Shown here piece after piece: positions 4,169-37,900 of a stretch of 39,491 nucleotides of DNA. The notes beneath the pieces are model-generated. The model had not been told where the DNA came from. It ran no database searches and worked only from the letters and a program-made list of their open reading frames with translations. The position numbers and the translations under genes are program-made. The stretch comes from a virus, in the UHGV virus genome UHGV-0344222, one strand, 5' to 3'. How positions within the stretch are numbered: the stretch's first letter is position 1; each line of letters starts with the position of its first letter.

Positions 4169-4885
<717 letters not shown>

Positions 4886-14323: not shown

Positions 14324-14734
14324 TTAGTGCGGAAATATTTGTGTAGTGTTCTGAATGTTCTCAGTAAAGAGTAATGAATTATCAAAGGTATAGTAATACC
14401 TTTTGTTTTCGTGGATATTTGTAATCCATCTGAAAACCCCTGCTGTAGCAAGATTTTTCCTGTATTCGTAAAATGATAACTCTCCTGATTTGAATCCTTT
14501 TAATGTGGCTTCTATAAGGCATTTATTTTTTGAAAATCTTACATTTACAACCTTACCCTGTCCTTTTATTAAAACCGTATTATCGTTTTCAAGAACAAGA
14601 TGAATATTCTCTGTGGCTAAATAGTAAATGTAATGTGAGACATTGTGACGTTTTAGTTCAGAATAAAACCAGTGATAGTTTAAATTATTTCGCACTTTAT
14701 CGAATATTTGTTTAAAAATGGCAACCTGAGCCAT
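14324..14734 (-). CDS. Conserved lambda right-end protein of unknown function (137 aa)
   Basis: [11 protein letters not shown]... with GGAAGG SD; resembles the lambda right-arm ORF as I recall it. Confidence 0.7.
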
Positions 14735-14791
14735 TGTAGTACCTTCCATGTGATATGAGGGTACCTAGTCTGCACGATTATCTAAATTGCT

Positions 14792-15025
14792 TCAATCTGG
14801 TCTGACCTGCTTTCTGAGCAATTCAGTAATGTCACTCTTTTCTTTGTTTGCTTCAGGAGAAACTCTTTTTTCTGAGCACAGTCTCCGGCGGCAGGCTTCA
14901 ATGACCCAGGCTGAGAAATTCCCGGACCCTTTTTGATCAAGAGCGATGTTAATTTGTTCAATCATTTGGTTAGGAAAGCGGATGTTGCGGGTTGTTGTTC
15001 TGCGGGTTCTGTTCTTCGTTGACAT
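14792..15025 (-). CDS. Small ribbon-helix-helix-like DNA-binding protein
   Basis: 77 aa; NIRFPNQMIEQINIALDQKGSGNFSAWVIEACRRR resembles Arc/CopG-type RHH. Confidence 0.55.
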   Translation of the reverse strand: MSTKNRTRRTTTRNIRFPNQMIEQINIALDQKGSGNFSAWVIEACRRRLCSEKRVSPEANKEKSDITELLRKQVRPD

Positions 15026-15224
15026 GAGGTTGTCCCGTATTCAGTGTCGCTGATTTGTATTGTCTGAAGTTGTTTTTACGTTAAGTTGATGCAGATCAAT
15101 TAATACGATACCTGCGTCATAATTGATTATTTGACGTGGTTTGATGGCGTAGATGCATGTTGTGACATGTAGATGATAATTATTATCATTTTGCGGGTCC
15201 TTTCCGGCGATCCGACAGGTTACG

Positions 15225-15236
15225 GGGCGGCGACCT
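15225..15236. other. cosN cohesive-end site (GGGCGGCGACCT); cosB/cosQ in flanking sequence
   Basis: Sequence ...CGACAGGTTACG|GGGCGGCGACCTCGCGGGTTTTCGCTATTTATGAAAA matches the joined lambda right and left ends. Confidence 0.9.
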
Positions 15237-15413
15237 CGCGGGTTTTCGCTATTTATGAAAAATTTCCGGTTTAAGGCGTTTCCGTTCTTCTTCGTCATAA
15301 CTTAATGTTTTTATTTAAAATACCCTCTGAAAAGAAAGGAAACGACAGGTGCTGAAAGCGAGCTTTTTGGCCTCTGTCGTTTCCTTTCTCTGTTTTTGTC
15401 CGTGGAATGAACA

Positions 15414-15933
15414 ATGGAAGTCAACAAAAAGCAGCTGGCTGACATTTTCGGTGCGAGTATCCGTACCATTCAGAACTGGCAGGAACAGGGAATGCCCGTT
15501 CTGCGAGGCGGTGGCAAGGGTAATGAGGTGCTTTATGACTCTGCCGCCGTTATAAAATGGTATGCCGAAAGGGATGCTGAAATTGAGAACGAAAAGCTGC
15601 GCCGGGAGGTTGAAGAACTGCGGCAGGCCAGCGAGGCAGATCTCCAGCCAGGGACTATTGAGTACGAACGCCATCGACTTACGCGTGCGCAGGCCGACGC
15701 ACAGGAACTGAAGAATGCCAGAGACTCCGCTGAAGTGGTGGAAACCGCATTCTGTACTTTCGTGCTGTCGCGGATCGCAGGTGAAATTGCCAGTATTCTC
15801 GACGGGATCCCCCTGTCGGTGCAGCGGCGTTTTCCGGAACTGGAAAACCGACATGTTGATTTCCTGAAACGGGATATCATCAAAGCCATGAACAAAGCAG
15901 CCGCGCTGGATGAACTGATACCGGGGTTGCTGA

Positions 15934-15959
<26 letters not shown>
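15414..15959 (+). CDS. Nu1: Terminase small subunit Nu1
   Basis: 181 aa MEVNKKQLADIFGASIRTIQNWQEQGMPV... Confidence 0.97.
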
Positions 15960-19640
<3,681 letters not shown>

Positions 19641-19660
<20 letters not shown>

Positions 19661-20960
19661 TCTCCCGCATATTGCCAGCATGGCCTTTAATGAGCCGCTG
19701 ATGCTTGAACCCGCCTATGCGCGGGTTTTCTTTTGTGCGCTTGCAGGCCAGCTTGGGATCAGCCGCCTGACGGATGCGGTGTCCGGCGACAGCCTGACTG
19801 CCCAGGAGGCACTCGCGACGCTGGCATTATCCGGTGATGATGACGGACCACGACAGGCCCGCAGTTATCAGGTCATGAACGGCATCGCCGTGCTGCCGGT
19901 GTCCGGCACGCTGGTCAGCCGGACGCGGGCGCTGCAGCCGTACTCGGGGATGACCGGTTACAACGGCATTATCGCCCGTCTGCAACAGGCTGCCAGCGAC
20001 CCGATGGTGGACGGCATTCTGCTCGATATGGACACGCCAGGCGGAATGGTGGCGGGGGCATTTGACTGCGCTGACATCATCGCCCGTGTGCGTGACATAA
20101 AACCGGTATGGGCGCTGGCCAACGACATGAACTGCAGTGCAGGTCAGCTGCTTGCCAGTGCCGCCTCCCGGCGTCTGGTCACGCAGACCGCCCGGACAGG
20201 CTCCATCGGCGTCATGATGGCTCACAGTAATTACGGTGCTGCCCTGGAGAAACAGGGTGTGGAAATCACGCTGATTTACAGCGGCAGCCATAAGGTGGAT
20301 GGCAATCCCTACAGCCATCTTCCGGATGACGTCCGGGAGACACTGCAGTCCCGGATGGATGCAACCCGCCGGATGTTTGCGCAGAAGGTGTCGGCATATA
20401 CCGGCCTGTCCGTGCAGGCTGTGCTGGATACCGAGGCTGCAGTGTACAGCGGTCAGGAGGCCATTGATGCCGGACTGGCTGATGAACTTGTCAACAGCAC
20501 CGATGCGATCACCGTTATGCGTGATGCACTGGATGCACGTAAATCCCGTCTCTCAGGAGGGCGAATGACCAAAGAGACTCAATCAACAACTGTTTCAGCC
20601 ACTGCTTCGCAGGCTGACGTTACTGACGTGGTGCAAGCGACGGAGGGCGAGAACGCCAGCGCTGCGCAGCCGGACGTGAACGCGCAGATCACCGCAGCGG
20701 TTGCGGCAGAAAACAGTCGCATTATGGGGATCCTCAACTGTGAGGAGGCTCACGGACGCGAAGAACAGGCATGCGTGCTGGCCGAAACCCCCGGTATGAC
20801 CGTGGAAACGGCCCGCCGTATTCTGGCCGCAGCACCACAGAGTGCACAGGCGCGCAGTGACACTGCGCTGGATCGTCTGATGCAGGGGGCACCGGCACCG
20901 CTGGCTGCAGGTAACCCGGCATCTGATGCCGTTAACGATTTGCTGAACACACCAGTGTAA
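19641..20960 (+). CDS. C: Head protease/scaffold C (GTG start)
   Basis: VTAELRNLPHIASMAFNEPL...; 439 codons; overlaps B by 20 nt as in lambda. Confidence 0.9.
20355..20960 (+). CDS. Nu3: Scaffold protein Nu3 (in-frame internal start within C)
   Basis: ATG at 20355 in the C frame; position corresponds to lambda Nu3. Confidence 0.7.
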   Translation: MDATRRMFAQKVSAYTGLSVQAVLDTEAAVYSGQEAIDAGLADELVNSTDAITVMRDALDARKSRLSGGRMTKETQSTTVSATASQADVTDVVQATEGENASAAQPDVNAQITAAVAAENSRIMGILNCEEAHGREEQACVLAETPGMTVETARRILAAAPQSAQARSDTALDRLMQGAPAPLAAGNPASDAVNDLLNTPV

Positions 20961-20969
20961 GGGATGTTT

Positions 20970-21302
20970 ATGACGAGCAAAGAAACCTTTACCCATTACC
21001 AGCCGCTGGGCAACAGTGACCCGGCTCATACCGCAACCGCGCCCGGCGGATTGAGTAAGAAAACGCCAGCAATGACTCCGTTGATGCCGGATACCTCCAC
21101 CCGTAAGCTGGTTGCGTGGGATGGCACCACCGACGGTGCTGCCGTTGGCATTCTTGCTGTTGCTGCTGACCAGACCAGCACCACGCTGACGTTCTACAAG
21201 TCCGGCACGTTCCGTTATGAGGATGTGCTCTGGCCGGAGGCTGCCAGCGACGAGGCGAAAAAACGGACCGCGTTTGCCGGAACGGCAATCAGCATCGTTT
21301 AA
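20970..21302 (+). CDS. D: Head decoration protein D
   Basis: [27 protein letters not shown]... 110 aa. Confidence 0.95.
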
Positions 21303-21357
21303 CCTGACCCTTCATCACTAAAGGCCGCCTGTGCGGCTTTTTTTACGGGATTTTTTT

Positions 21358-22383
21358 ATGTCGATGTACACAACCGCCCAGCTGCTGGCGGCAAATGAGC
21401 AGAAATTTAAGTTTGATCCGCTGTTTCTGCGTCTCTTTTTCCGTGAGAGCTATCCCTTCACTACGGAGAAAGTCTATCTCTCACAAATTCCGGGACTGGT
21501 AAACATGGCGCTGTACGTTTCGCCGATTGTTTCCGGTGAGGTTATCCGTTCCCGTGGCGGCTCCACCTCTGAATTTACGCCGGGATATGTCAAGCCGAAG
21601 CATGAAGTGAATCCGCAGATGACCCTGCGTCGCCTGCCGGATGAAGATCCGCAGAATCTGGCGGACCCGGCTTACCGCCGCCGTCGCATCATCATGCAGA
21701 ACATGCGTGACGAAGAGCTGGCCATTGCTCAGGTCGAAGAGATGCAGGCAGTTTCTGCCGTGCTTAAGGGCAAATACACCATGACCGGTGAAGCCTTCGA
21801 TCCGGTTGAGGTGGATATGGGTCGCAGTGAAGCGAATAACATCACGCAGTCCGGCAGCACGGGGTGGAGCAAGCGCGACAAGTCCACGTATGACCCGACC
21901 GACGATATCGAAGCCTACGCGCTGAACGCCAGCGGTGTGGTGAATATCATCGTGTTTGACCCGAAAGGCTGGGCGCTGTTCCGTTCCTTCAAAGCCGTCA
22001 GGGAGAAGCTGGATACCCGTCGCGGCTCTCATTCCGAACTGGAGACAGCGGTAAAAGACCTGGGCAAAGCGGTGTCCTATAAGGGAATGTATGGCGATGT
22101 GGCCATCGTCGTGTATTCCGGACAGTACGTGGAAAACGGCGTCAAAAAGAACTTCCTGCCGGACAACACGATGGTGCTGGGTAACACTCATGCACGCGGT
22201 CTGCGCACCTATGGCTGTATTCAGGATGCGGATGCATTGAGTGAGGGTATTAATGCGTCTCCCCGTTATCCGAAAAACTGGAAGACATCCGGCGATCCGG
22301 CGCGAGAGTTCACCATGATTCAGTCAGCACCGCTGATGCTGCTGGCTGATCCTGATGAGTTCGTGTCCGTTCAACTGGCGTAA
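21358..22383 (+). CDS. E: Major capsid protein E
   Basis: MSMYTTAQLLAANEQKFKFDPLFLRLFF... 341 aa. Confidence 0.97.
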   Translation: MSMYTTAQLLAANEQKFKFDPLFLRLFFRESYPFTTEKVYLSQIPGLVNMALYVSPIVSGEVIRSRGGSTSEFTPGYVKPKHEVNPQMTLRRLPDEDPQNLADPAYRRRRIIMQNMRDEELAIAQVEEMQAVSAVLKGKYTMTGEAFDPVEVDMGRSEANNITQSGSTGWSKRDKSTYDPTDDIEAYALNASGVVNIIVFDPKGWALFRSFKAVREKLDTRRGSHSELETAVKDLGKAVSYKGMYGDVAIVVYSGQYVENGVKKNFLPDNTMVLGNTHARGLRTYGCIQDADALSEGINASPRYPKNWKTSGDPAREFTMIQSAPLMLLADPDEFVSVQLA

Positions 22384-22424
22384 TCATGGCCCTTCGGGGC
22401 CATTTTCTCTCTGTGGAGGAGTCC

Positions 22425-22820
22425 ATGACGAAAGATGAACTGATTGCCCGTCTCCGTTCGCTGGGTGAGCAACTGAACCGTGATGTCAGCCTGACGGGGA
22501 CGAAAGAAGAACTGGCGCTCCGTGTGGCAGAGCTGGAAGAGGAGCTTGATGACACGGATGACGCAGCCGGTCAGGACACGTCGGTCAGCCCGGAAAATGT
22601 GCTGACCGTGCATGAAAATGAGGTTGTATCAGCGCAGCCGGATACCGTGACTGATACGGCTGATCTGGTCACGGTTGTGGCACTGGTGACGCTGCATACT
22701 GATGCACTTCACGCCACGCGGGATGAGGCTGTGGCATTTGTGCTGCCGGGAACGGCGTTTCGTGTCTCTGCCGGTGTGGCAGCTGAAATGACAGAGCGCG
22801 GCCTGGCCAGAATGCAATAA
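22425..22820 (+). CDS. FI: DNA-packaging protein FI
   Basis: MTKDELIARLRSLGEQLNRDVSLTGTKEELALRV... 131 aa. Confidence 0.93.
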   Translation: MTKDELIARLRSLGEQLNRDVSLTGTKEELALRVAELEEELDDTDDAAGQDTSVSPENVLTVHENEVVSAQPDTVTDTADLVTVVALVTLHTDALHATRDEAVAFVLPGTAFRVSAGVAAEMTERGLARMQ

Positions 22821-22831
22821 CGGGAGGCGCT

Positions 22832-23185
22832 GTGGCTGATTTCGATAACCTGTTCGATGCTGCCATTGCCTGCGCCGATGAAACGATACGCGGGTACATG
22901 GGAACGTCAGCCACCATGACATCCGGTGAGCAGTCCGGTGCTGTGATACGTGGTGTTTTTGATGACCCTGAAAATATCAGCTATGCCGGACAGGGCGTGC
23001 GCGTTGAAGGCTCCAGCCCGTCCCTGTTTGTCCGGACTGATGAGGTGCGGCAACTGCGGCGTGGAGACACGCTGACCATCGGTGAGGAAAACTTCTGGAT
23101 AGACCGGGTTTCGCCGGATGATGGCGGAAGCTGTCATCTCTGGCTTGGGCGTGGCGTGCCGCCTGCCGTTAACCGTCGCCGTTGA
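22832..23185 (+). CDS. FII: Head-tail connector FII
   Basis: 117 aa MADFDNLFDAAIACADETIRGYMG... Confidence 0.95.
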   Translation: MADFDNLFDAAIACADETIRGYMGTSATMTSGEQSGAVIRGVFDDPENISYAGQGVRVEGSSPSLFVRTDEVRQLRRGDTLTIGEENFWIDRVSPDDGGSCHLWLGRGVPPAVNRRR

Positions 23186-23196
23186 AAGGGGGATGT

Positions 23197-23775
23197 ATGG
23201 CCATAAAAGGTCTTGAGCAGGCCGTTGAAAACCTCAGCCGTATCAGCAGAACGGCGGTGCCCGGTGCCGCCGCAATGGCCATTAACCGCGTTGCTTCATC
23301 CGCGATATCGCAGTCGGCGTCACAGGTTGCCCGTGAGACAAAGGTACGCCGGAAACTGGTAAAGGAAAGGGCCAGGCTGAAAAGGGCCACGGTCAAAAAT
23401 CCGCAGGCCAGAATCAGGGTTAACCGGGGGGATTTGCCCGTAATAAAGCTGGGTAACGCGCGGATTGTCCTGTCCCGACGCAGGCGTCGTAAAAAGGGGC
23501 AGCGTTCATCCCTGAAAGGTGGCGGCAGCGTGCTTGTGGTGGGAAACCGTCGTATTCCCGGCGCGTTTATTCAGCAACTGAAAAATGGCCGCTGGCATGT
23601 CATGCAGCGTGTGGCCGGGAAAAACCGTTACCCTATTGATGTGGTGAAAATCCCGATGGCGGTGCCGCTGACCACGGCGTTTAAACAAAATATTGAGCGG
23701 ATACGGCGTGAACGTCTTCCGAAAGAGCTGGGCTATGCGCTGCAGCATCAACTGAGGATGGTAATAAAGCGATGA
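23197..23775 (+). CDS. Z: Tail completion protein Z
   Basis: MAIKGLEQAVENLSRISRTAVPGAAAM... 192 aa. Confidence 0.93.
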   Translation: MAIKGLEQAVENLSRISRTAVPGAAAMAINRVASSAISQSASQVARETKVRRKLVKERARLKRATVKNPQARIRVNRGDLPVIKLGNARIVLSRRRRRKKGQRSSLKGGGSVLVVGNRRIPGAFIQQLKNGRWHVMQRVAGKNRYPIDVVKIPMAVPLTTAFKQNIERIRRERLPKELGYALQHQLRMVIKR

Positions 23776-24167
23776 AACATACTGAACTCCGTGCAGCCGT
23801 ACTGGATGCACTGGAGAAGCATGACACCGGGGCGACGTTTTTTGATGGTCGCCCCGCTGTTTTTGATGAGGCGGATTTTCCGGCAGTTGCCGTTTATCTC
23901 ACCGGCGCTGAATACACGGGCGAAGAGCTGGACAGCGATACATGGCAGGCGGAGCTGCATATTGAAGTTTTCCTGCCTGCTCAGGTGCCGGATTCAGAGC
24001 TGGATGCGTGGATGGAGTCCCGGATTTATCCGGTGATGAGCGATATCCCGGCGCTGTCAGATTTGATCACCAGTATGGTGGCCAGTGGCTATGACTACCG
24101 GCGCGACGATGATGCGGGCCTGTGGAGTTCAGCCGATCTGACTTATGTCATTACCTATGAAATGTGA
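23772..24167 (+). CDS. U: Tail terminator U
   Basis: 131 aa [26 protein letters not shown]... Confidence 0.95.
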
Positions 24168-24174
24168 GGACGAT

Positions 24175-24915
24175 ATGCCAACACCAAATCCTCTGGCACC
24201 GGTGAAAGGGGCCGGGACCACCCTGTGGGTTTATAACGGGAGCGGTGACCCTTATGCGAATCCGCTTTCAGACGTTGACTGGTCGCGTCTGGCAAAAGTT
24301 AAAGACCTGACGCCCGGCGAACTGACCGCTGAGTCCTATGACGACAGCTATCTCGATGATGAAAATGCGGACTGGACTGCGACCGGGCAGGGGCAGAAAT
24401 CTGCCGGAGATACCAGCTTCACGCTGGCGTGGATGCCCGGAGAGCAGGGGCAGCAGGCGCTGCTGGCGTGGTTTAATAAAGGGGATACCCGTGCCTATAA
24501 AATCCGCTTCCCGAACGGCACGGTCGATGTGTTCCGCGGCTGGGTCAGCAGTATCGGTAAGGCGGTGACGGCGAAGGAAGTGATCACCCGCACGGTGAAA
24601 GTCACCAACGTGGGACGTCCGTCGATGGCAGAAGATCGCAGCACGGTAACAGCGGCAACCGGCATGACCGTGACGCCTGCCAGCACTTCGGTGGTGAAAG
24701 GGCGGAGCATCACGCTGACCGTGGCATTCCAGCCGGAAGGCGCAACCGACAAGAGCTTCCGTGCGGTGTCTGCGGATAAAACAAAAGCCACCGTGTCGGT
24801 CAGTGGTATGACCATCACCGTGAAAGGTGTTGCTGCAGGCAAGGTCAACATTCCGGTTGTATCCGGTAATGGTGAACTTGCTGTGGTTGCAGGAATCACC
24901 GTCACCGACAGTTAA
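24175..24915 (+). CDS. V: Major tail tube protein V (with C-terminal Ig-like domain)
   Basis: [31 protein letters not shown]... 246 aa. Confidence 0.95.
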
Positions 24916-24930
24916 TCCGGAGAGTCAGCG

Positions 24931-25353
24931 ATGTTCCTGAAAACCGAATCATTTGAATATAACGGTGTGAGCGTCACGCTTTCTGAACTGTCAGCCCTGC
25001 AGCGAATTGAGCATCTCGCCCTGCTGAAACGACAGGCAGAACAGGCGGGATCCAGTCTCAATCGATAGGTGAGCGTGGAAGATCTCGTCAGAACCGGTGC
25101 TTTTCTGGTGGCGATGTCCCTGTGGCATAGCCATCCGCAGAAGACAAAGATGCCGTCCATGAATGAAGCCGTTAAACAAATTGAGCAGGAAGTGCTTACC
25201 ACCTGGCCCACAGAGGCAATTGCTCAGGCTGAAAATGTGGTAATGCGTCTGTCCGGTATGTCTGAGTTTGTTGTAAATGATGCCCCTGAACAGGCAGAGG
25301 ACGCCGGGCCTGCAGAGCCTGTTTCTGCGGGAAAGTGTTCGACGGTGAGCTGA
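24931..25353 (+). pseudogene. G: Tail assembly chaperone G interrupted by an in-frame TAG at codon 46 (25066-25068)
   Basis: MFLKTESFEYNGVSVTLSELSALQRIEHLALLKRQAEQAGSSLNR* then VSVEDLVRTGAFLVAM... in the same frame; slippery site G GGA AAG at 25329-25335 intact. Confidence 0.85.
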
Positions 25354-25769
25354 GTTTTGCCCTGAAACTGGCGCGTGAGATGGGGCGACCTGACTGGCGC
25401 GCCATGCTTGCCGGGATGTCATCCACGGAGTATGCCGACTGGCACCGCTTTTACAGTACCCATTATTTTCATGATGTTCTGCTGGATATGCACTTTTCCG
25501 GGCTGACGTACACCGTACTCAGCCTGTTTTTCAGCGATCCGGATATGCATCCGCTGGATTTCAGTCTGCTGAACCGGCGCGAGGCTGACGAAGAGCCTGA
25601 AGATGATGTGCTGATGCAGAAAGCGGCAGGGCTTGCCGGAGGCGTCCGCTTTGGCCCGGACGGGAATGAAGTTATCCCCGCTTCCCCGGATGTGGCGGAC
25701 ATGACGGAGGATGACGTAATGCTGATGACAGTATCAGAAGGGATCGCAGGAGGAGTCCGGTATGGCTGA
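25335..25769 (+). CDS. T: T portion of the G-T tail assembly chaperone (made by -1 frameshift from G)
   Basis: -1 frame ORF MFDGELSFALKLAREMGRPDWRAMLAGMSSTEYADWHRFY... following the slippery heptamer. Confidence 0.8.
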   Translation: MFDGELSFALKLAREMGRPDWRAMLAGMSSTEYADWHRFYSTHYFHDVLLDMHFSGLTYTVLSLFFSDPDMHPLDFSLLNRREADEEPEDDVLMQKAAGLAGGVRFGPDGNEVIPASPDVADMTEDDVMLMTVSEGIAGGVRYG

Positions 25770-28323
25770 ACCGGTAGGCGATCTGGTCGTTGATTTGAGT
25801 CTGGATGCGGCCAGATTTGACGAGCAGATGGCCAGAGTCAGGCGTCATTTTTCCGGTACGGAAAGTGATGCGAAAAAAACAGCGGCAGTCGTTGAACAGT
25901 CAATGAACCGGCAGGCGCTGGCTGCACAGAAAGCGGGGATTTCCGTCGGACAGTATAAAGCCGCCATGCGTATGCTGCCTGCACAGTTCACCGACGTGGC
26001 CACGCAGCTTGCAGGCGGGCAAAGCCCGTGGCTGATCCTGCTGCAACAGGGGGGTCAGGTTAAGGACTCCTTCGGCGGGATGATCCCCATGTTCAGGGGG
26101 CTTGCCGGTGCGATCACCCTGCCGATGGTGGGGGCCACCTCGCTGGCGGTGGCGACCGGTGCGCTGGCGTATGCCTGGTATCAGGGCAACTCAACCCTGT
26201 CCGATTTCAACAAAACGCTGGTCCTTTCCGGCAATCAGGCGGGACTGACGGCAGATCGTATGCTGGTCCTGTCCAGAGCCGGGCAGGCGGCAGGGCTGAC
26301 GTTTAACCAGACCAGCGAGTCACTGACGGCGCTGGTGAATGCCGGTGTGCGTGGTGGTGAGCAGTTTGAGGCGATCAGCCAGAGTGTGGCGCGTTTCTCC
26401 TCTGCATCCGGCGTGGAGGTGGACAAGGTCGCTGAAGCCTTCGGGAAGCTGACCACAGACCCGACGTCGGGACTGACAGCGATGGCACGTCAGTTCCATA
26501 ACGTGACGGCGGAGCAGATTGCGTATGTTGCTCAGTTGCAGCGTTCCGGAGATGAAGCCGGGGCATTGCAGGCGGCGAACGAGGCCGCAACGAAAGGGTT
26601 TGATGACCAGACCCGACGCCTGAAAGAGAACATGGGCACGCTGGAAACCTGGGCAGACAGGACAGCACGGGCATTCAAATCCATGTGGGATGCGGTGCTG
26701 GATATTGGTCGTCCTGATACCGCTCAGGAGATGCTGATTAAGGCAGAGGCTGCGTTTAAGAAAGCAGACGACATCTGGAATCTGCGCAAGGATGATTATT
26801 TTGTTAACGATGAAGCGCGGGCGCGTTACTGGGATGATCGTGAAAAGGCCCGTCTTGCGCTTGAAGCCGCCCGAAAGAAGGCTGAGCAGCAGACTCAACA
26901 GGACAAAAATGCGCAGCAGCAGAGCGATACTGAAGCGTCACAGCTGAAATATACCGAAGAGGCGCAGAAGGCTTACGAACGGCTGCAGACGCCGCTGGAG
27001 AAATATACCGCCCGTCAGGAAGAACTGAACAAGGCACTGAAAGACGGGAAAATCCTGCAGGCGGATTACAACACGCTGATGGCGGCGGCGAAAAAGGATT
27101 ATGAAGCGACGCTGAAAAAGCCGAAACAGTCCGGCGTGAAGGTGTCTGCGGGCGATCGTCAGGAAGACAGTGCTCATGCTGCCCTGCTGACGCTTCAGGC
27201 AGAACTCCGGACGCTGGAGAAGCATGCCGGAGCAAATGAGAAAATCAGCCAGCAGCGCCGGGATTTGTGGAAGGCGGAGAGTCAGTTCGCGGTACTGGAG
27301 GAGGCGGCGCAACGTCGCCAGCTGTCTGCACAGGAGAAATCCCTGCTGGCGCATAAAGATGAGACGCTGGAGTACAAACGCCAGCTGGCTGCACTTGGCG
27401 ACAAGGTTACGTATCAGGAGCGCCTGAACGCGCTGGCGCAGCAGGCGGATAAATTCGCACAGCAGCAACGGGCAAAACGGGCCGCCATTGATGCGAAAAG
27501 CCGGGGGCTGACTGACCGGCAGGCAGAACGGGAAGCCACGGAACAGCGCCTGAAGGAACAGTATGGCGATAATCCGCTGGCGCTGAATAACGTCATGTCA
27601 GAGCAGAAAAAGACCTGGGCGGCTGAAGACCAGCTTCGCGGGAACTGGATGGCAGGCCTGAAGTCCGGCTGGAGTGAGTGGGAAGAGAGCGCCACGGACA
27701 GTATGTCGCAGGTAAAAAGTGCAGCCACGCAGACCTTTGATGGTATTGCACAGAATATGGCGGCGATGCTGACCGGCAGTGAGCAGAACTGGCGCAGCTT
27801 CACCCGTTCCGTGCTGTCCATGATGACAGAAATTCTGCTTAAGCAGGCAATGGTGGGGATTGTCGGGAGTATCGGCAGCGCCATTGGCGGGGCTGTTGGT
27901 GGCGGCGCATCCGCGTCAGGCGGTACAGCCATTCAGGCCGCTGCGGCGAAATTCCATTTTGCAACCGGAGGATTTACGGGAACCGGCGGCAAATATGAGC
28001 CAGCGGGGATTGTTCACCGTGGTGAGTTTGTCTTCACGAAGGAGGCAACCAGCCGGATTGGCGTGGGGAATCTTTACCGGCTGATGCGCGGCTATGCCAC
28101 CGGCGGTTATGTCGGTACACCGGGCAGCATGGCAGACAGCCGGTCGCAGGCGTCCGGGACGTTTGAGCAGAATAACCATGTGGTGATTAACAACGACGGC
28201 ACGAACGGGCAGATAGGTCCGGCTGCTCTGAAGGCGGTGTATGACATGGCCCGCAAGGGTGCCCGTGATGAAATTCAGACACAGATGCGTGATGGTGGCC
28301 TGTTCTCCGGAGGTGGACGATGA
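25762..28323 (+). CDS. H: Tail tape-measure protein H
   Basis: 853 aa, lambda gpH-like. Confidence 0.97.
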   Translation: MAEPVGDLVVDLSLDAARFDEQMARVRRHFSGTESDAKKTAAVVEQSMNRQALAAQKAGISVGQYKAAMRMLPAQFTDVATQLAGGQSPWLILLQQGGQVKDSFGGMIPMFRGLAGAITLPMVGATSLAVATGALAYAWYQGNSTLSDFNKTLVLSGNQAGLTADRMLVLSRAGQAAGLTFNQTSESLTALVNAGVRGGEQFEAISQSVARFSSASGVEVDKVAEAFGKLTTDPTSGLTAMARQFHNVTAEQIAYVAQLQRSGDEAGALQAANEAATKGFDDQTRRLKENMGTLETWADRTARAFKSMWDAVLDIGRPDTAQEMLIKAEAAFKKADDIWNLRKDDYFVNDEARARYWDDREKARLALEAARKKAEQQTQQDKNAQQQSDTEASQLKYTEEAQKAYERLQTPLEKYTARQEELNKALKDGKILQADYNTLMAAAKKDYEATLKKPKQSGVKVSAGDRQEDSAHAALLTLQAELRTLEKHAGANEKISQQRRDLWKAESQFAVLEEAAQRRQLSAQEKSLLAHKDETLEYKRQLAALGDKVTYQERLNALAQQADKFAQQQRAKRAAIDAKSRGLTDRQAEREATEQRLKEQYGDNPLALNNVMSEQKKTWAAEDQLRGNWMAGLKSGWSEWEESATDSMSQVKSAATQTFDGIAQNMAAMLTGSEQNWRSFTRSVLSMMTEILLKQAMVGIVGSIGSAIGGAVGGGASASGGTAIQAAAAKFHFATGGFTGTGGKYEPAGIVHRGEFVFTKEATSRIGVGNLYRLMRGYATGGYVGTPGSMADSRSQASGTFEQNNHVVINNDGTNGQIGPAALKAVYDMARKGARDEIQTQMRDGGLFSGGGR

Positions 28324-28649
28324 AGACCTTCCGCTGGAAAGTGAAACCCGGTATGGATGTGGCTTCGGTCCCTTCTGTAAGAAAGGTGCGCTTTGGTGAT
28401 GGCTATTCTCAGCGAGCGCCTGCCGGGCTGAATGCCAACCTGAAAACGTACAGCGTGACGCTTTCTGTCCCCCGTGAGGAGGCCACGGTACTGGAGTCGT
28501 TTCTGGAAGAGCACGGGGGCTGGAAATCCTTTCTGTGGACGCCGCCTTATGAGTGGCGGCAGATAAAGGTGACCTGCGCAAAATGGTCGTCGCGGGTCAG
28601 TATGTTGCGTGTTGAGTTCAGCGCAGAGTTTGAACAGGTGGTGAACTGA
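28320..28649 (+). CDS. M: Tail tip protein M
   Basis: 109 aa MKTFRWKVKPGMDVASVPSVRKVRFGDGYSQRAPAG... Confidence 0.95.
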   Translation: MKTFRWKVKPGMDVASVPSVRKVRFGDGYSQRAPAGLNANLKTYSVTLSVPREEATVLESFLEEHGGWKSFLWTPPYEWRQIKVTCAKWSSRVSMLRVEFSAEFEQVVN

Positions 28650-29347
28650 TGCAGGATATCCGGCAGGAAACACTGAATGAATGCACCCGTGCGGAGCAGT
28701 CGGCCAGCGTGGTGCTCTGGGAAATCGACCTGACAGAGGTCGGTGGAGAACGTTATTTTTTCTGTAATGAGCAGAACGAAAAAGGTGAGCCGGTCACCTG
28801 GCAGGGGCGACAGTATCAGCCGTATCCCATTCAGGGGAGCGGTTTTGAACTGAATGGCAAAGGCACCAGTACGCGCCCCACGCTGACGGTTTCTAACCTG
28901 TACGGTATGGTCACCGGGATGGCGGAAGATATGCAGAGTCTGGTCGGCGGAACGGTGGTCCGGCGTAAGGTTTACGCCCATTTTCTGGATGCGGTGAACT
29001 TCGTCAACGGAAACAGTTACGCCGATCCGGAGCAGGAGGTGATCAGCCGCTGGCGCATTGAGCAGTGCAGCGAACTGAGCGCGGTGAGTGCCTCCTTTGT
29101 ACTGTCCACGCCGACGGAAACGGATGGCGCTGTTTTTCCGGGACGTATCATGCTGGCCAACACCTGCACCTGGACCTATCGCGGTGACGAGTGCGGTTAT
29201 AGCGGTCCGGCTGTCGCGGATGAATATGACCAGCCAACGTCCGATATCACGAAGGATAAATGCAGCAAATGCCTGAGCGGTTGTAAGTTCCGCAATAACG
29301 TCGGCAACTTTGGCGGCTTCCTTTCCATTAACAAACTTTCGCAGTAA
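28649..29347 (+). CDS. L: Tail tip protein L
   Basis: 232 aa MQDIRQETLNECTRAEQSASVVLWEIDLTEVGGERYFF... Confidence 0.95.
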   Translation: MQDIRQETLNECTRAEQSASVVLWEIDLTEVGGERYFFCNEQNEKGEPVTWQGRQYQPYPIQGSGFELNGKGTSTRPTLTVSNLYGMVTGMAEDMQSLVGGTVVRRKVYAHFLDAVNFVNGNSYADPEQEVISRWRIEQCSELSAVSASFVLSTPTETDGAVFPGRIMLANTCTWTYRGDECGYSGPAVADEYDQPTSDITKDKCSKCLSGCKFRNNVGNFGGFLSINKLSQ

Positions 29348-29352
29348 ATCCC

Positions 29353-30096
29353 ATGACACAGACAGAATCAGCGATTCTGGCGCACGCCCGGCGATGTGCG
29401 CCAGCGGAGTCGTGCGGCTTCGTGGTAAGCACGCCGGAGGGGGAAAGATATTTTCCCTGCGTGAATATCTCCGGTGAGCCGGAGGCGTATTTCCGTATGT
29501 CGCCGGAAGACTGGCTGCAGGCAGAGATGCAGGGTGAGATTGTGGCGCTGGTCCACAGCCACCCCGGTGGTCTGCCCTGGCTGAGTGAGGCCGACCGGCG
29601 GCTGCAGGTGCAGAGTGATTTGCCGTGGTGGCTGGTCTGCCGGGGGACGATTCATAAGTTCCGCTGTGTGCCGCATCTCACCGGGCGGCGCTTTGAGCAC
29701 GGTGTGACGGACTGTTACACACTGTTCCGGGATGCTTATCATCTGGCGGGGATTGAGATGCCGGACTTTCATCGTGAGGATGACTGGTGGCGTAACGGCC
29801 AGAATCTCTATCTGGATAATCTGGAGGCGACGGGGCTGTATCAGGTGCCGTTGTCAGCGGCACAGCCGGGCGATGTGCTGCTGTGCTGTTTTGGTTCATC
29901 AGTGCCGAATCACGCCGCAATTTACTGCGGCGACGGCGAGCTGCTGCACCATATTCCTGAACAACTGAGCAAACGAGAGAGGTACACCGACAAATGGCAG
30001 CGACGCACACACTCCCTCTGGCGTCACCGGGCATGGCGCGCATCTGCCTTTACGGGGATTTACAACGATTTGGTCGCCGCATCGACCTTCGTGTGA
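29353..30096 (+). CDS. K: Tail tip assembly protein K (JAB/MPN plus NlpC/P60-like); overlaps I
   Basis: HSHPGGLPWLSEAD JAMM-type motif; ORF of 247 codons as given by the track, true stop/start usage not verified. Confidence 0.85.
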   Translation: MTQTESAILAHARRCAPAESCGFVVSTPEGERYFPCVNISGEPEAYFRMSPEDWLQAEMQGEIVALVHSHPGGLPWLSEADRRLQVQSDLPWWLVCRGTIHKFRCVPHLTGRRFEHGVTDCYTLFRDAYHLAGIEMPDFHREDDWWRNGQNLYLDNLEATGLYQVPLSAAQPGDVLLCCFGSSVPNHAAIYCGDGELLHHIPEQLSKRERYTDKWQRRTHSLWRHRAWRASAFTGIYNDLVAASTFV

Positions 30097-30665
30097 AAAC
30101 GGGGGCTGAAGCCATCCGGGCACTGGCCACACAGCTCCCGGCGTTTCGTCAGAAACTGAGCGACGGCTGGTATCAGGTACGGATTGCCGGGCGGGACGTC
30201 AGCACGTCCGGGTTAACGGCGCAGTTACATGAGACTCTGCCTGATGGCGCTGTGATTCATATTGTTCCCAGAGTCGCCGGGGCCAAGTCAGGTGGCGTAT
30301 TCCAGATTGTCCTGGGGGCTGCCGCCATTGCCGGATCATTCTTTACCGCCGGAGCCACCCTTGCAGCATGGGGGGCAGCCATTGGGGCCGGTGGTATGAC
30401 CGGCATCCTGTTTTCTCTCGGTGCCAGTATGGTGCTCGGTGGTGTGGCGCAGATGCTGGCACCGAAAGCCAGAACTCCCCGTACACAGACAACGGATAAC
30501 GGTAAGCAGAACACCTATTTCTCCTCACTGGATAACATGGTTGCCCAGGGCAATGTTCTGCCTGTTCTGTACGGGGAAATGCGCGTGGGGTCACGCGTGG
30601 TTTCTCAGGAGATCAGCACGGCAGACGAAGGGGACGGTGGTCAGGTTGTGGTGATTGGTCGCTGA
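29994..30665 (+). CDS. I: Tail tip assembly protein I
   Basis: 223 aa MAATHTLPLASPGMARICLYGDLQRFGRRIDLRVKTGAEAIRA... Confidence 0.95.
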   Translation: MAATHTLPLASPGMARICLYGDLQRFGRRIDLRVKTGAEAIRALATQLPAFRQKLSDGWYQVRIAGRDVSTSGLTAQLHETLPDGAVIHIVPRVAGAKSGGVFQIVLGAAAIAGSFFTAGATLAAWGAAIGAGGMTGILFSLGASMVLGGVAQMLAPKARTPRTQTTDNGKQNTYFSSLDNMVAQGNVLPVLYGEMRVGSRVVSQEISTADEGDGGQVVVIGR

Positions 30666-30725
30666 TGCAAAATGTTTTATGTGAAACCGCCTGCGGGCGG
30701 TTTTATCGTTTATGGAGCATGACGA

Positions 30726-33700
30726 ATGGGTAAAGGCAGCAGTAAAGGGCATACCCCGCGCGAAGCGAAGGACAACCTGAAGTCCACGCAGCTGCTGAGT
30801 GTGATCGATGCCATCAGCGAAGGGCCGGTTGAAGGTCCGGTGGATGGATTAAAAAGCGTGCTGCTGAACAGTACGCCGGTGCTGGACAGTGAGGGGAATA
30901 CCAATATATCCGGCGTCACGGTGGTGTTCCGGGCCGGTGAGCAGGAGCAGACACCGCCGGAGGGATTTGAATCCTCCGGCTCCGAGACGGTGCTCGGTAC
31001 AGAAGTGAAATATGACACGCCGATCACCCGGACCATCACGTCGGCAAACATTGACCGTCTGCGTTTTACTTTCGGCGTGCAGGCACTGGTGGAAACCACC
31101 TCAAAGGGGGACAGGAATCCATCGGAAGTCCGCCTGCTGGTTCAGATACAACGTAACGGTGGCTGGGTGACGGAAAAAGACATCACCATTAAGGGCAAAA
31201 CCACCTCGCAGTATCTGGCCTCGGTGGTGGTGGGTAACCTGCCGCCGCGCCCGTTCAATATCCGGATGCGCAGGATGACGCCGGACAGCACCACAGACCA
31301 GCTGCAGAACAAAACGCTCTGGTCGTCATACACCGAAATCATCGATGTGAAACAGTGCTACCCGAACACGGCACTGGTCGGCGTGCAGGTGGATTCGGAG
31401 CAGTTCGGCAGCCAGCAGGTGAGCCGTAATTATCATCTGCGCGGGCGCATTCTGCAGGTGCCGTCGAACTATAACCCGCAGACGCGGCAATACAGCGGTA
31501 TCTGGGACGGAACGTTTAAGCCAGCATACAGCAACAACATGGCCTGGTGTCTGTGGGATATGCTGACCCATCCGCGCTACGGCATGGGGAAACGTCTTGG
31601 TGCGGCGGATGTGGACAAATGGGCGCTGTATGTCATCGGCCAGCATTGCGATCAGTCGGTGCCGGACGGTTTTGGCGGCACGGAGCCGCGCATCACCTGT
31701 AATGCGTACCTGACCACACAGCGCAAGGCGTGGGATGTGCTCAGTGATTTCTGCTCTGCGATGCGCTGTATGCCGGTATGGAACGGGCAGACGCTGACGT
31801 TCGTGCAGGACCGACCGTCGGATAAGGTGTGGACCTATAACCGCAGTAATGTGGTGATGCCGGATGATGGTGCGCCGTTCCGCTACAGCTTCAGCGCCCT
31901 GAAGGACCGCCATAATGCCGTTGAGGTGAACTGGATTGACCCGAATAACGGCTGGGAGACGGCGACAGAGCTTGTGGAGGACACGCAGGCCATTGCCCGT
32001 TACGGTCGTAACGTCACGAAGATGGATGCTTTTGGCTGTACCAGCCGGGGGCAGGCACACCGCGCCGGGCTGTGGCTGATTAAAACAGAACTGCTGGAAA
32101 CGCAGACCGTGGACTTCAGCGTGGGTGCCGAAGGGCTTCGCCATGTACCGGGCGATGTCATTGAAATCTGCGATGATGACTATGCCGGTATCCGCACCGG
32201 CGGGCGCGTGCTGGCGGTAAACAGCCAGACCCGGACGCTGACGCTCGACCGTGAAATCACGCTGCCATCTTCCGGCACCACGCTGATAAGCCTGGTTGAC
32301 GGGCAGGGGAGTCCGGTCAGCGTGGAGGTTCAGTCCGTCACCGACGGCGTGAAGGTGAAAGTGAGCCGTGTTCCTGACGGCGTTGCTGAATACAGCGTAT
32401 GGGGGCTGAAGCTGCCGACGTTGCGCCAGCGCCTGTTCCGCTGCGTGAGTATCCGTGAGAACGACGACGGCACGTATGCCATCACCGCCGTGCAGCATGT
32501 ACCGGAAAAAGAGGCCATCGTGGATAACGGGGCGCACTTTGACGGCGACCAGAGCGGCACGGTAAATGGTGTCACGCCGCCAGCGGTGCAGCACCTGACC
32601 GCAGAAGTCACCGCAGACAGCGGGGAATACCAGGTGCTGGCCCGCTGGGACACGCCGAAGGTGGTGAAGGGCGTGAGCTTCCTGCTTCGCCTGACCGTGG
32701 CAGCGGATGACGGCCGTGAGCGGCTGGTCAGCACGGCCCGGACGACGGAAACCACTTACCGCTTCACACAACTGGCTCTGGGGAACTACAGGCTGACAGT
32801 CCGGGCAGTAAATGCGTGGGGGCAGCAGGGCGATCCGGCGTCGGTATCGTTCCGGATTGCCGCACCGGCAGCGCCGTCGCGGATTGAGCTGACGCCGGGC
32901 TATTTTCAGATAACCGCCACGCCGCATCTTGCGGTTTATGACCCGACGGTACAGTTTGAGTTCTGGTTCTCGGAAAAACGGATTGCGGATATCAGGCAGG
33001 TTGAAACCAGCGCGCGTTATCTTGGTACGGCACTGTACTGGATAGCCGCCAGTATCAATATCAAACCGGGCCATGATTATTATTTTTACGTTCGCAGTGT
33101 GAACACCGTTGGCAAATCGGCATTCGTGGAGGCTGTCGGTCAGCCGAGTGATGATGCATCAGGCTATCTGGATTTTTTCAAAGGCGAGATAGGGAAAACC
33201 CATCTGGCTCAGGAGCTGTGGACGCAGATTGATAACGGTCAGCTTGCGCCTGACCTGGCTGAAATCAGGACGTCCATTACGGATGTCAGCAATGAAATCA
33301 CACAGACCGTCAATAAGAAACTGGAAGACCAGAGTGCAGCGATCCAGCAGATACAGAAGGTTCAGGTTGATACAAATAATAATCTGAACAGCATGTGGGC
33401 TGTGAAGCTGCAACAGATGAAGGACGGACGCCTTTATATTGCGGGTATCGGTGCCGGTATTGAGAATACGCCAGCAGGAATGCAGAGTCAGGTGCTGCTG
33501 GCGGCAGACAGGATTGCGATGATTAATCCTGCGAATGGCAACACAAAACCGATGTTTGTTGGTCAGGGTGATCAGATATTCATGAATGAAGTGTTCCTGA
33601 AGCGCCTGACGGCCCCCACCATTACCAGCGGCGGCAATCCTCCGGCCTTTTCCCTGACACCGGACGGAAAGCTGACCGCTAAAAATGCGGATATCAGTGG

Positions 33701-34208
33701 CAGTGTGAATGCGAACTCCGGGACGCTCAACAACGTCACGATTAATGAGAACTGTCAGATTAAGGGGAAACTGTCAGCCAATCAGATTGAAGGCGATATT
33801 GTCAAAACGGTCAGCAAGTCTTTCCCCCGCACGAGCACTTATGCCAGTGGCACCATCACGGTAAGAATCAGTGATGATCAGAAATTTGACCGGCAGGTCA
33901 TGATACCGCCAGTGTTATTCCGCGGTGGTAAGCATGAGAATTTCAACAGTAATAACCAACAGTCATACTGGTATTCAACCTGCCGGTTAAGAGTGACCCG
34001 CAATGGTCAGGAGATTTTTAATCAGTCCACGACGGATGCTCAGGGCGTATTTTCCTCCGTTATAGATATGCCTGCCGGACAGGGGACGCTGACACTGACA
34101 TTCACCGTATCTTCATCAGGAGCGAATAACTGGACACCAACAACCAGTATCAGCGATCTGCTGGTTGTGGTGATGAAAAAATCCACAGCAGGTATCAGTA
34201 TCAGCTGA
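30726..34208 (+). CDS. J: Central tail fiber / host-specificity protein J (1160 aa) with divergent C-terminal receptor-binding region
   Basis: N-terminal about 980 aa lambda J-like; C-terminal about 170 aa differ from what I recall of lambda J. Confidence 0.93.
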
Positions 34209-34274
34209 ATTTTATAACCCAGAACGGGCGTCAGAAATGACGCCTTTTTTATTGCAGAAAAGCGAGAGGTAATT

Positions 34275-34874
34275 ATGCGTAAACTTTATGCCGCCATTTT
34301 GTCCGCAGCCATCTGTCTGGCCGTATCCGGTGCGCCTGCATGGGCGTCTGAACATCAGTCCACGCTGAGCGCGGGCTATCTTCATGCCTCGACGAACGTT
34401 TCCGGCAGCGATGATCTGAACGGGATTAACGTGAAATACCGTTATGAGTTTACGGACACGCTGGGAATGGTGACGTCATTCAGCTATGCAGGAGACAAGA
34501 ATCGCCAGCTTACCCGTTACAGCGATACCCGCTGGCATGAAGATTCCGTGCGTAACCGCTGGTTCAGCGTAATGGCGGGGCCGTCTGTGCGCGTGAATGA
34601 ATGGTTCAGCGCGTATGCGATGGCGGGTGTGGCTTACAGCCGTGTGTCGACTTTCTCCGGGGATTATCTCCGCGTAATTGACAACAAGGGGAAAACGCAC
34701 GACGTGCTGACCGGAAGTGATGACGGTCGCCACAGCAACACGTCTCTGGCGTGGGGAGCTGGCGTGCAGTTTAACCCGACCGAATCCGTGGCCATTGATA
34801 TTGCTTATGAAGGCTCCGGCAGTGGTGACTGGCGCACTGACGGTTTCATCGTGGGTGTCGGTTATAAATTCTGA
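34275..34874 (+). CDS. lom: Lom outer-membrane protein (Ail/OmpX family)
   Basis: 199 aa with signal peptide [24 protein letters not shown] and ...[11 protein letters not shown]-terminus. Confidence 0.9.
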
Positions 34875-34932
34875 TTAGCCAGGTAACACAGTGTTATGAC
34901 AGCCCGCCGGTTCAGGCGGGCTTTTTTGTGGG

Positions 34933-37900
34933 GTGAATATGGCAGTAAAGATTTCAGGTGTACTGAAAGACGGCACAGGAAAACCGGTACAGAACTGCAC
35001 AATCCAGCTGAAAGCAAAACGTAACAGTACCACTGTGGTGGTGAACACGCTGGCCTCAGAAAATCCGGATGAAGCCGGGCGTTACAGCATGGACGTTGAG
35101 TACGGTCAGTACAGCGTTATTCTGTTGGTGGAAGGATTCCCGCCGTCACATGCCGGGACCATCACCGTGTATGAAGATTCTCAACCCGGTACGCTGAATG
35201 ATTTTCTCGGTGCCATGACGGAGGATGATGCCCGTCCGGAGGCACTGCGTCGTTTTGAACTGATGGTGGAAGAGGTGGCGCGTAACGCGTCCGTGGTGGC
35301 ACAGAACACGGCAGCCGCAAAGAAGTCAGCCAGTGATGCCAGCACATCTGCCAGTGAGGCGGCAACCCGTGCGACTGATGCTGCAGATTCAGCACGTGCA
35401 GCCAGCACGTCAGCCGGACAGGCCGCGTCGTCGGCTCAGTCAGCGTCTTCCAGCGCAGGAACGGCATCAACAAAGGCCACTGAAGCCTCAAAAAGTGCTG
35501 CCGCTGCAGAGTCCTCAAAAAGCGCGGCGGCTACCAGTGCCGGTGCGGCGAAAACGTCAGAAACGAATGCGGCAGTGTCAGAACAATCAGCCGCCACTTC
35601 TGCATCCACCGCGACCACGAAAGCGTCAGAAGCTGCCACCTCAGCCAGGGATGCGTCGGCTTCAAAAGAGGCGGCAAAATCATCAGAAACGAACGCATCA
35701 TCAAGCGCCAGTAGTGCAGCTTCCTCGGCAACGGCGGCAGGAAATTCCGCGAAGGCGGCAAAGACGTCTGAGACAAACGCCAGGTCCTCTGAAACGGCAG
35801 CAGCACAGAGTGCCTCCGCAGCAGCAGGCTCAAAAACAGCGGCTGTGTCGTCGGCCAGTGCCGCGTCAACAAGTGCCGGGCAGGCCTCAGCCAGTGCCAC
35901 CGCCGCCGGAAAATCGGCAGAAAGCGCCGCGTCGTCCGCTTCAACAGCCACAACGAAGGCTGGCGAAGCCACTGAACAGGCCAGCGCAGCAGCGAGGTCT
36001 GCTTCCGCAGCGAAGACATCCGAAACGAACGCGAAAGCGTCGGAAACCAACGCAGAATCCTCAAAAACGGCTGCCGCATCGTCCGCCAGTTCGGCGGCGT
36101 CATCGGCATCATCGGCGTCTGCTTCAAAAGATGAGGCGACCAGACAGGCGTCAGCAGCGAGGGGCAGCGCCACGACGGCATCCACGAAGGCGACAGAGGC
36201 TGCTGGCAGTGCGGCAGCGGCAGCACAGAGCAAAAGTACGGCAGAATCCGCAGCAACGCGCGCTGAGACAGCGGCAAAACGGGCAGAGGATATTGCATCC
36301 GCCGTGGCGCTTGAGGATGCGAGCACGACGAAAAAGGGGATAGTACAGCTCAGCAGTGCGACTAACAGCACGTCTGAAACGCTGGCGGCAACGCCAAAGG
36401 CAGTAAAAGCAGCCTATGACAATGCAGAGAAACGTCTGCAGAAAGACCAGAACGGTGCTGATATTCCCGACAAGGACCGCTTCCTGAGTAACATTAATGT
36501 TTACAGCAAAGGTGAAGTGGATCAGAAAAAGGGGATGCGATACGTTGTGGTAAATGCCCCGGCGGGTGTCCAGGAAGGTAAATATTATCCGTTAGTGATA
36601 AAAAGGAATGACAGCCATCGGGCATCCCGCGTTGTCATTTCAACGCCAAGTCGCTTAGCTAATCACAGAATGAATAATTGTGAGTTTAATGGTTTTGTTT
36701 GCGCAGGCGGCTGGACGGACCGGGGTAGCTATGCCTGTGGTATGTTCTGGGCTTATTCATCATCGGAACGCGCTATTCATTCCATTCTGATGAGTAATAA
36801 AGGCGATACCGTAGACAGCGTATTCTATATAGAAGGTGGGGCATTTCCCGTAGAGGTCTTTTTAGAAGAAGGTCTCTCCGTTACTGCACCTGCTTCTGAT
36901 TATATTGTTGCTGAAACGACTTATAAATTTGGCGCAACTGATCCTTATTCTGAATCAGTTGCGGTAAATTTAATTTTAGATTTTAAACAAGGTAATGGAT
37001 TTTATAGTTCGTATCCTGTTTTGAGTAAGTCAGACATTAGCGGGAATAAGATTTACGCTAATGATGAAGTTATTGTCCGTAGTCAGAACGCGTTAAGGAT
37101 GATTGCAGGTGATTACGGTGTCATATGGCGAAATGATGGAGCAAATACTTACTTGCTCATGACTGATAAAGGCGACCAGTACGGTGGCTGGAACGGTCTT
37201 CGACCATTTGCAGTAAATAACGCAACAGGTGAAGTGACGATCAATACACCACTTAATTCTCCTAAGGGGATTAAGGGAAATTCTGATACAGCTACGAAAC
37301 TTCAGACAGCAATAAAAATATCTGGTGTTTCGTTTGATGGTTCTACTGATATCACTTTAACCGCTGCGCATGTTGCTGCTTTTGCCAGAAGAGCAACGGA
37401 TACGTATGCCGATGCGGATGGGGGCGTTCCCTGGAATGCCGAATCAGGCGCTTACAATGTCACTCGCTCTGGCGACAGCTATATTCTGGTTAACTTCTAT
37501 ACCGGAGTCGGAAGTTGCCGGACCTTGCAGATGAAGGCGCATTACAGAAATGGTGGTCTGTTCTACCGTTCTTCAAGAGACGGTTATGGTTTTGAGGAAG
37601 ACTGGGCAGAAGTTTATACCTCGAAAAATCTTCCACCAGAAAGCTACCCAGTCGGCGCACCAATCCCGTGGCCATCAGATACCGTTCCGTCTGGTTATGC
37701 CCTGATGCAGGGGCAGACTTTTGACAAATCTGCTTACCCGAAACTTGCAGCTGCTTATCCGTCAGGCGTGATCCCTGATATGCGTGGCTGGATGATTAAG
37801 GGCAAGCCCGCCAGTGATCGAGCCGTATTGTCTCAGGAACAGGACGGCATTAAATCACACACCCACAGCGCCAGCGTATCCAGTACGGATTTGGGGACGA

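Follow-up and report, generated by a model that had tools for sequence, protein, structure and literature searches.

Results

A lambda-like prophage with one interrupted gene

The stretch of DNA analysed here, UHGV-0344222 (39,491 nt; hereafter the window), is a lambda-like E. coli prophage and a close natural relative of lambda. The order of its tail genes, V-G-T-H-M-L-K-I-J, is exactly that of lambda, and identity with lambda amounts to 97.5% over the 18 kb of the cos-to-J region (the cos 12-mer was found at 15225) and to 99.1% for the segment of the immunity region from cI to ninB. Lambda homology ends at the boundary of cI (4169-4882), and the position of lambda rexA-rexB beside this gene is occupied by an unrelated 253-aa ORF (3376-4137, minus strand) with weak similarity to KilA-N domain proteins (26% identity by tblastn). 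The Q-to-lysis region is of a DLP12-like type that differs from that of lambda and includes a porin gene. This gene (10431-11513, minus strand) lies between a Q-like antiterminator gene (9859-10242) and the holin gene, encodes a 360-aa porin of the OmpC/NmpC type, and is 100% identical to the gene annotated as ompC in the prophage of E. coli O78 strain 3; it is cargo of the lysogenic-conversion type, and lambda has no such gene. The stf gene (34933-38286) forms one unbroken ORF of 1117 codons, whereas two (orf-401 and orf-314) are annotated in the lambda reference, and its central part is mosaic with respect to both lambda and the O78 relative.

The prophage of E. coli O78 strain 3, the closest complete relative, which occupies lambda attB between ybhC and ybhB-bioA, served as the annotated reference, and its 58 annotated proteins were compared with the window by tblastn. 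All genes from N to tfa (approximately 45 phage genes) were found at full length apart from G, the only one with an internal stop; a stop flagged in tfa is the terminator of that gene, located two codons early. The same comparison revealed no in-frame TAG in the other phage genes of the window, and no tRNA gene is present within its 39.5 kb. The sole Rfam match of the window at the gathering threshold, family IS009 (RF02111, 221 bits), lies at 38629-38827 on the plus strand, inside the 3' part of tfa.

Gene G and its amber codon

Gene G is preceded by V (24175-24915, plus strand), which encodes the major tail protein and is intact, with a full-length tblastn match and no stop; the exact V protein is widespread and elsewhere adjoins an intact G. 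The Shine-Dalgarno sequence of G, GGAGAG (24919-24924), is calculated to form a duplex of -7.6 kcal/mol with the 3' end of 16S rRNA. The ATG at 24931 opens a frame that contains a single internal stop across 24931-25353, a TAG at codon 46 (25066-25068), so that the 5' part of the gene (24931-25068) consists of 45 sense codons and the amber codon and specifies a beta-hairpin, a first helix, and a loop. The G frame reopens at a GTG (25069) directly after the TAG and runs to the normal stop at 25351-25353. It contains the slippery heptamer G GGA AAG for -1 frameshifting (25329-25335), which is identical to that of lambda, is in the G frame, lies 88 codons downstream of the TAG, and is surrounded by invariant alignment columns (390-430). 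The T reading frame, -1 relative to G (25335-25769), has no stop, is 99.3% identical to that of the relative, matches PF06223 (Phage_tail_T, minor tail protein T), and overlaps the start of H (25762-28323). According to both the ORF listing and tblastn, H encodes an intact tape measure protein of 853 aa, the client of the G chaperone.

With Gln restored at position 46, the G protein matched PF06894 (Phage_TAC_2) over profile positions 1-125 of 126 with an E value of 2.5e-55 and a score of 186 bits (curated cut-off, 27). The stop splits this single domain, with the 45-aa piece corresponding to positions 1-41 and the 92-aa piece to positions 50-125. The window thus has the PF06894 match, the location between V and H, and the slippery heptamer with an overlapping -1 T ORF that characterize a lambda-type G/GT locus, and the TAG at codon 46 interrupts the frame that links the start codon with the slippery site. 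Its G is a member of the G/GT family by descent, but a null or pseudogene allele. The 140-codon frame is unbroken in lambda, in phage PhiR11_1, in the prophage of strain ATCC 8739, and in 28 of 34 fetched loci with this type of allele, which argues that the stop in G is more than a chance occurrence. These findings uphold the description in the initial annotation of a tail assembly chaperone gene with a G-T frameshift, in which an in-frame amber codon truncates both G and the G-T fusion while the downstream frame and the slippery site are kept.

Origin of the stop from a CAG codon

An alignment of G showed that codon 46 is CAG in the ATCC 8739 prophage and in PhiR11_1 and is AAG (Lys) in lambda. 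Given that the closest public alleles carry CAG, the stop is the result of a single C>T transition at 25066. The remaining differences in G and T from these relatives are synonymous, with the exception of one D>E replacement that is common to lambda, and they do not point to any relaxation of constraint past the stop.

Sister prophages were located by look-up of exact window proteins. A contig of GCA_016656385.1 (DADBYP010000007.1) matches window positions 21762-32323 (10,562 bp) with 25066 as the sole difference. Over positions 20726-38849 (18,124 bp), it differs at four sites, 25066, 38822, 38829, and 38833, the last three of which cluster at a mosaic junction at the 3' end of tfa, beyond which the elements diverge. 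Position 25066 was also the only difference from window positions 14129-27859 in both GCA_016656385.1 and the Logan assembly ERR4457387, and these sister prophages match the window over approximately 24.7 kb apart from that position. All seven loci with an identical H protein encode an intact G of 140 aa. The initial annotation had allowed that closely related intact phages might share the TAG; the close intact prophages carry CAG instead. Such near-identical sisters indicate that the mutation is very young compared with the divergence of these prophages. A mutational hot spot was considered as a source of the change and rejected, the context GACAGG not being a Dcm site (CCWGG).

The right flanks of these elements were compared for window positions 38822-39245 and for positions 17561-23483 of each of two fetched loci, L035 (ENA ERZ27269914) and L029. 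In the CAG sister, a GGDEF gene and ybhB-bioA-bioB, the lambda attB side, lie beyond tfa (194 aa). In the window and L035, the genes after tfa (191 aa) are a Pin-like invertase gene, ynaE, a usp gene, a porin gene, and a PFOR gene, a neighbourhood of the Rac-prophage type. The switch at the 3' end of tfa could reflect recombination of one resident lambdoid prophage with another, or a join made during assembly via a shared repeat.

Occurrence and rarity of the TAG allele

The T at 25066 was recovered from several sources. A 228-kb contig of NCBI assembly GCA_045076085.1 overlaps the window by 21,926 bp with 100% identity and has no G product called, as is expected for a pseudogene. A 38-kb Logan contig of SRR30012536, reported in three samples, and a 69.6-kb contig of ENA ERZ27269914 are 100% identical to the window over 16,857 and 18,520 bp, respectively, and in both of them G is called as products of 45 and 92 aa. 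A short contig of ENA ERZ27269923 (L004) also carries the TAG, with 231 nt of G being identical. Given that the same T is present in separate assemblies and that position 25066 is not in a homopolymer, a sequencing error, which the initial annotation had held open, is very unlikely.

Neither the 5,426 complete E. coli genomes nor the 50,697 phage records searched contained a 30-mer that matches only when the TAG is present (CAGTCTCAATCGATAGGTGAGCGTGGAAGA), and an exact 29-mer with the TAG was not found among the GTDB representatives, in IMG/VR, or in metagenomes of the JGI. With a 76-mer that has the TAG at its centre, 413 E. coli records matched at 95-99% identity and none at 99% or above; among the matches listed, every one had exactly one mismatch. 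The same protein with Gln46 was found on 271 contigs. Eight contigs had the exact 45-aa product, but four short ones (L005-L008) were set aside as wild-type CAG sequences cut by contig ends.

L004 was not counted as a second genetic background. It combines the TAG, preceded by an identical stretch of 157 nt, with divergent Z, U, and V sequences (38 mismatches), the metagenome assembly from which it comes was built with k=141, and no fetched locus is an exact match for its upstream part; a chimera and a recombinant are both possible.

The window closes with 246 nt (39246-39491) that correspond, in reverse complement, to L035 positions 18419-18664, which comprise the equivalent of window positions 39144-39245 together with the next 144 nt in L035. 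The window consequently ends in a 105-nt inverted repeat (39144-39248 and 39387-39491) with an abrupt breakpoint in the Pin-like DNA invertase gene, whereas in L035 the invertase (196 aa) is intact and the second arm of the repeat is absent. The repeat looks more like an artefact of assembly at a contig end than like an invertible segment, and its presence implies that a whole contig from a different assembly makes up the window.

Possible restart after the stop

The initial annotation proposed that translation might restart at the GTG adjacent to the stop. This codon (25069) is indeed in frame and directly follows the TAG, opening an ORF of 94 aa (25069-25353, plus strand), but no Shine-Dalgarno sequence lies close enough to serve it (-4.3 kcal/mol at a distance of 15 nt). 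A second GTG at 25075 is the better candidate. It opens a 92-aa ORF in the G frame (25075-25353, plus strand) that retains the slippery site, and it is preceded, at an aligned spacing of approximately 5 nt, by the Shine-Dalgarno-like sequence AGGTGA (25067-25072), which overlaps the stop and is also present in the wild-type sequence CAGGTGA. The calculated duplex of this sequence with the 3' end of 16S rRNA (-8.3 kcal/mol) is as strong as that of the site of G itself and is in the best seventh or so of those for start-like triplets between 15414 and 34000 (14% reach -8.0 kcal/mol or lower). The 92-aa ORF is also the exact product of public gene callers (P0029). Given this favorable site and the choice of the gene callers, truncated forms of G and of the G-T fusion are probably produced to some extent.

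To judge what such products would lack, we aligned 44 diverse homologues and obtained a structure model of G with AlphaFold (AF2). Residues 1-35 are the most conserved part of the family, with L3, E19, and L23 being invariant and K4, L20, S21, Q24, and R25 nearly so. They are followed by a linker of variable length (approximately residues 36-50), the most variable part of the family, and then by a COOH-terminal block. The model (mean pLDDT, 85.7) consists of a beta-hairpin (residues 5-18, with strands 5-10 and 13-18) and four long helices: helix 1 (residues 22-39) is separated by a loop (40-44) from helix 2 (45-65), and further helices extend to residue 108, followed by a disordered tail (109-140). 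A sequence search of the PDB and a Foldseek search yielded no significant match among solved structures, with the HK97 chaperone (2ob9), the reference for the spiral all-helical fold, appearing only at rank 27 of the Foldseek search against the PDB (E = 3.4). Lacking the hairpin and helix 1 of this model, the restart product is unlikely to work alone.

Other changes in the G linker

Additional lesions were found in the same part of G. ENA ERZ21883316 (L018, 1389-1811) has a CGA>TGA change at codon 45 and an intact CAG. E. coli p0305293.15 and others have lost 1 nt of a GGG run near codon 40, which gives rise to a 46-aa product, the stop of which overlaps the same GTG, and a downstream ORF of 94 aa. 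An ENA protein (P0030) lacks residues 36-46 by an in-frame deletion of 11 aa between CGACAGG direct repeats, and other G alleles have three fewer or two more linker residues; the proteins with linker changes were P0015, P0016, P0030, P0118, and P0147. These lesions are independent events. The apparent cluster at codons 40-46 was considered as a hot spot or a tolerated site and set aside: only products that end or begin there had been queried, and the end points of fragments in an unbiased search of representative sequences were spread along the whole protein, so the clustering is not evidence for either.

Discussion

We have described a naturally occurring amber codon in gene G of a lambda-like prophage. 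The gpG protein and its frameshift product gpGT are both needed for tail assembly, at a molar ratio of approximately 30:1, with the G part binding the tape measure protein and the T part recruiting the major tail protein (PMC5009743), and both have been reported to be essential for this process (PMC5009743, PMC4493119). With an engineered stop in its gpG homologue, phage TP901-1 formed DNA-filled capsids but no tails, together with aggregates that were ascribed to the tape measure protein (PMC4493119). Because the stop in the window lies upstream of the slippery site, it would remove both gpG and gpGT, and the prediction of the initial annotation that the phage is tail-defective unless the codon is suppressed or translation restarts thus appears sound.

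In a non-suppressing host, ribosomes would terminate after 45 residues, well upstream of G GGA AAG, and neither full-length gpG nor the gpGT fusion would be produced in useful amounts. The H protein would be left without its chaperone and V would not be recruited to it. Induction would be expected to lead to lysis and to the release of DNA-filled heads, functional tails and infectious particles being scarce or absent. Because late transcription in lambda is subject to antitermination by Q, polarity of the stop on H to J is likely to be small. Some leakiness may result from near-cognate readthrough or from reinitiation at the GTG at 25075, neither of which is expected to restore function. We put at approximately 80% the probability that the TAG is a genuine and recent C>T loss-of-function nonsense mutation (Gln46 to amber) that has become fixed in one clonal E. 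coli lineage. Several points speak against such an interpretation. A start preceded by a good Shine-Dalgarno sequence lies 6 nt past the stop, so that some production of the 92-aa fragment and of its fusion to T is probable; the break is placed where a linker of variable length ends, which makes complementation by two fragments conceivable; and the allele has lasted long enough to be sampled several times, as a tolerated change would.

An alternative possibility is that termination is followed by reinitiation at the GTG at 25075 (or that at 25069), yielding G(48-140) and G(48-140)-T, and that these products, alone or together with the 45-residue peptide, chaperone H and keep the phage viable. 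The duplex of AGGUGA is stronger than that of the G ribosome binding site (-8.3 versus -7.6 kcal/mol), only 6 nt separate stop and start, and the break comes just after loop 40-44, at the start of helix 2, in a linker whose length varies among alleles (by -3 or +2 aa, or by the 11-aa in-frame deletion). Independent lesions just upstream of the same GTGs (the TGA at codon 45 and the 1-nt deletion near codon 40) fit this possibility as well, but their clustering is biased by the querying of products that end or begin there. The restart product would moreover be missing residues 1-47, including the hairpin, helix 1, and most of the invariant or nearly invariant residues (L3, K4, E19, L20, S21, L23, Q24, and R25), and the split arrangement is not conserved, with every sister and thousands of relatives having an unbroken G. 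We thus consider rescue by reinitiation improbable. Its more specific form, in which the 45-residue piece, G(48-140), and G(48-140)-T reassemble across the linker, the prophage is infectious, and breaks in the linker are tolerated (TAG at codon 46, TGA at codon 45 in ERZ21883316, and the frameshift), has a very slim chance of being correct; a functional split gene would, if confirmed, reveal something new about the modularity of tail assembly chaperones. The host might instead carry an amber suppressor, such as a supE-like tRNA-Gln with the anticodon CUA, or read through UAG sufficiently to supply full-length gpG and gpGT with Gln46, so that the phage would be functional in its own host. The supE suppressor inserts Gln, and since the ancestral codon is CAG it would restore the wild-type protein exactly; the TAG is also followed by G, and suppression is reported to be favoured by a purine at this position. 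However, wild E. coli strains uncommonly carry suppressor alleles, and UAG is read through at a basal level of approximately 1% or less. A literature search for natural amber suppressors in wild E. coli gave nothing useful. A phage-borne suppressor tRNA was discarded, no tRNA gene being present in the 39.5-kb window, and the other phage genes contain no in-frame TAG, with nothing to suggest a suppressor-adapted phage. Suppression accordingly seems a slim prospect.

An artefact, with the T at 25066 being a sequencing or assembly error and the real phage having CAG, would account for the fact that the window and its sister differ at one base amid many kilobases of identity, and the window does end in an assembly-like inverted duplication. 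The same T was nevertheless obtained across sources and pipelines (GCA_045076085.1, SRR30012536 in three samples, ERZ27269914, and ERZ27269923) at a position outside a homopolymer, and these comparisons largely refute the artefact, which retains scarcely any credibility. Programmed recoding, in which the UAG would be a conserved readthrough or recoding signal that sets the dosage of G and GT, has in its favour only that the stop occurs in a gene with another form of recoding, the -1 frameshift. The stop is not conserved, being unmatched in the 5,426 complete E. coli genomes, the 50,697 phage records, and the three other collections searched, and otherwise identical prophages carry CAG; an Rfam search of the G-T region found no RNA family. 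Recoding is to be regarded as refuted by this lack of conservation, as judged from sequence comparison, and its probability is close to nil.

A loss-of-function mutation therefore remains the preferred reading, and the allele can be compared with known systems on that basis. The G/T locus of lambda (J02459, 9711-10549) shares with that of the window the V-H position, a G of 140 codons once Gln46 is restored, the slippery heptamer, and the T overlap, with a DNA identity of 94.3% across G-T; it differs in having AAG (Lys) in place of TAG at codon 46 and a different allele of linker residues 36-47. Classical sus (amber) mutants of lambda late genes are Campbell-type conditional lethals. The window allele resembles them in being an in-frame UAG, one base from CAG, in an essential morphogenesis gene, at which supE would insert the original glutamine. 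Whereas those mutants were obtained by laboratory mutagenesis and selection on suppressor hosts, the window allele arose naturally, in a wild prophage lineage. It is an ordinary nonsense mutation, a natural "sus"-type allele, that has most likely left an otherwise intact prophage unable to build tails. The gpG::Ter mutant of TP901-1 (PMC4493119) likewise has a premature stop in a gpG-type chaperone upstream of the G-T frameshift, and its phenotype is the one predicted here, although it is an engineered mutant of a distant lactococcal phage and host and has no nearby in-frame restart codon with a Shine-Dalgarno sequence.

Defective or cryptic lambdoid prophages of E. coli include DLP12, Rac, Qin, and e14 (PMC6379469). 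They have lost infectivity by mutation while resident in the chromosome, as is predicted for the window prophage, which carries an inherited inactivating lesion in an essential gene (the TAG being present in GCA_045076085.1, SRR30012536, and ERZ27269914). They differ from it in their large deletions, IS insertions, and many pseudogenes, in place of which the window has one nonsense codon across approximately 45 genes. With this single lesion, the window prophage represents at most the earliest step of decay.

The finding as it stands matters little. It does provide a clean and datable first inactivating event in a lambda-like prophage that is intact in other respects and for which an isogenic sister without the lesion is available, and the TAG/CAG prophage pair constitutes a natural isogenic system for the effects of loss of gpG and gpGT in a wild relative of lambda. 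It also calls for caution with predictors of prophage completeness, by which the window element would be scored as intact.

Two other elements among the fetched loci have tail-gene lesions of their own. The ATCC 8739 prophage (L001, 1269-1845), in which G is intact, has a Z gene annotated as frameshifted and is another lambda-like prophage with a single lesion. GCA_014775395.1 (L046, 9315-12992) has an IS66-family element with three ORFs inserted between Z and U in an otherwise similar prophage, a different route to tail-gene inactivation.
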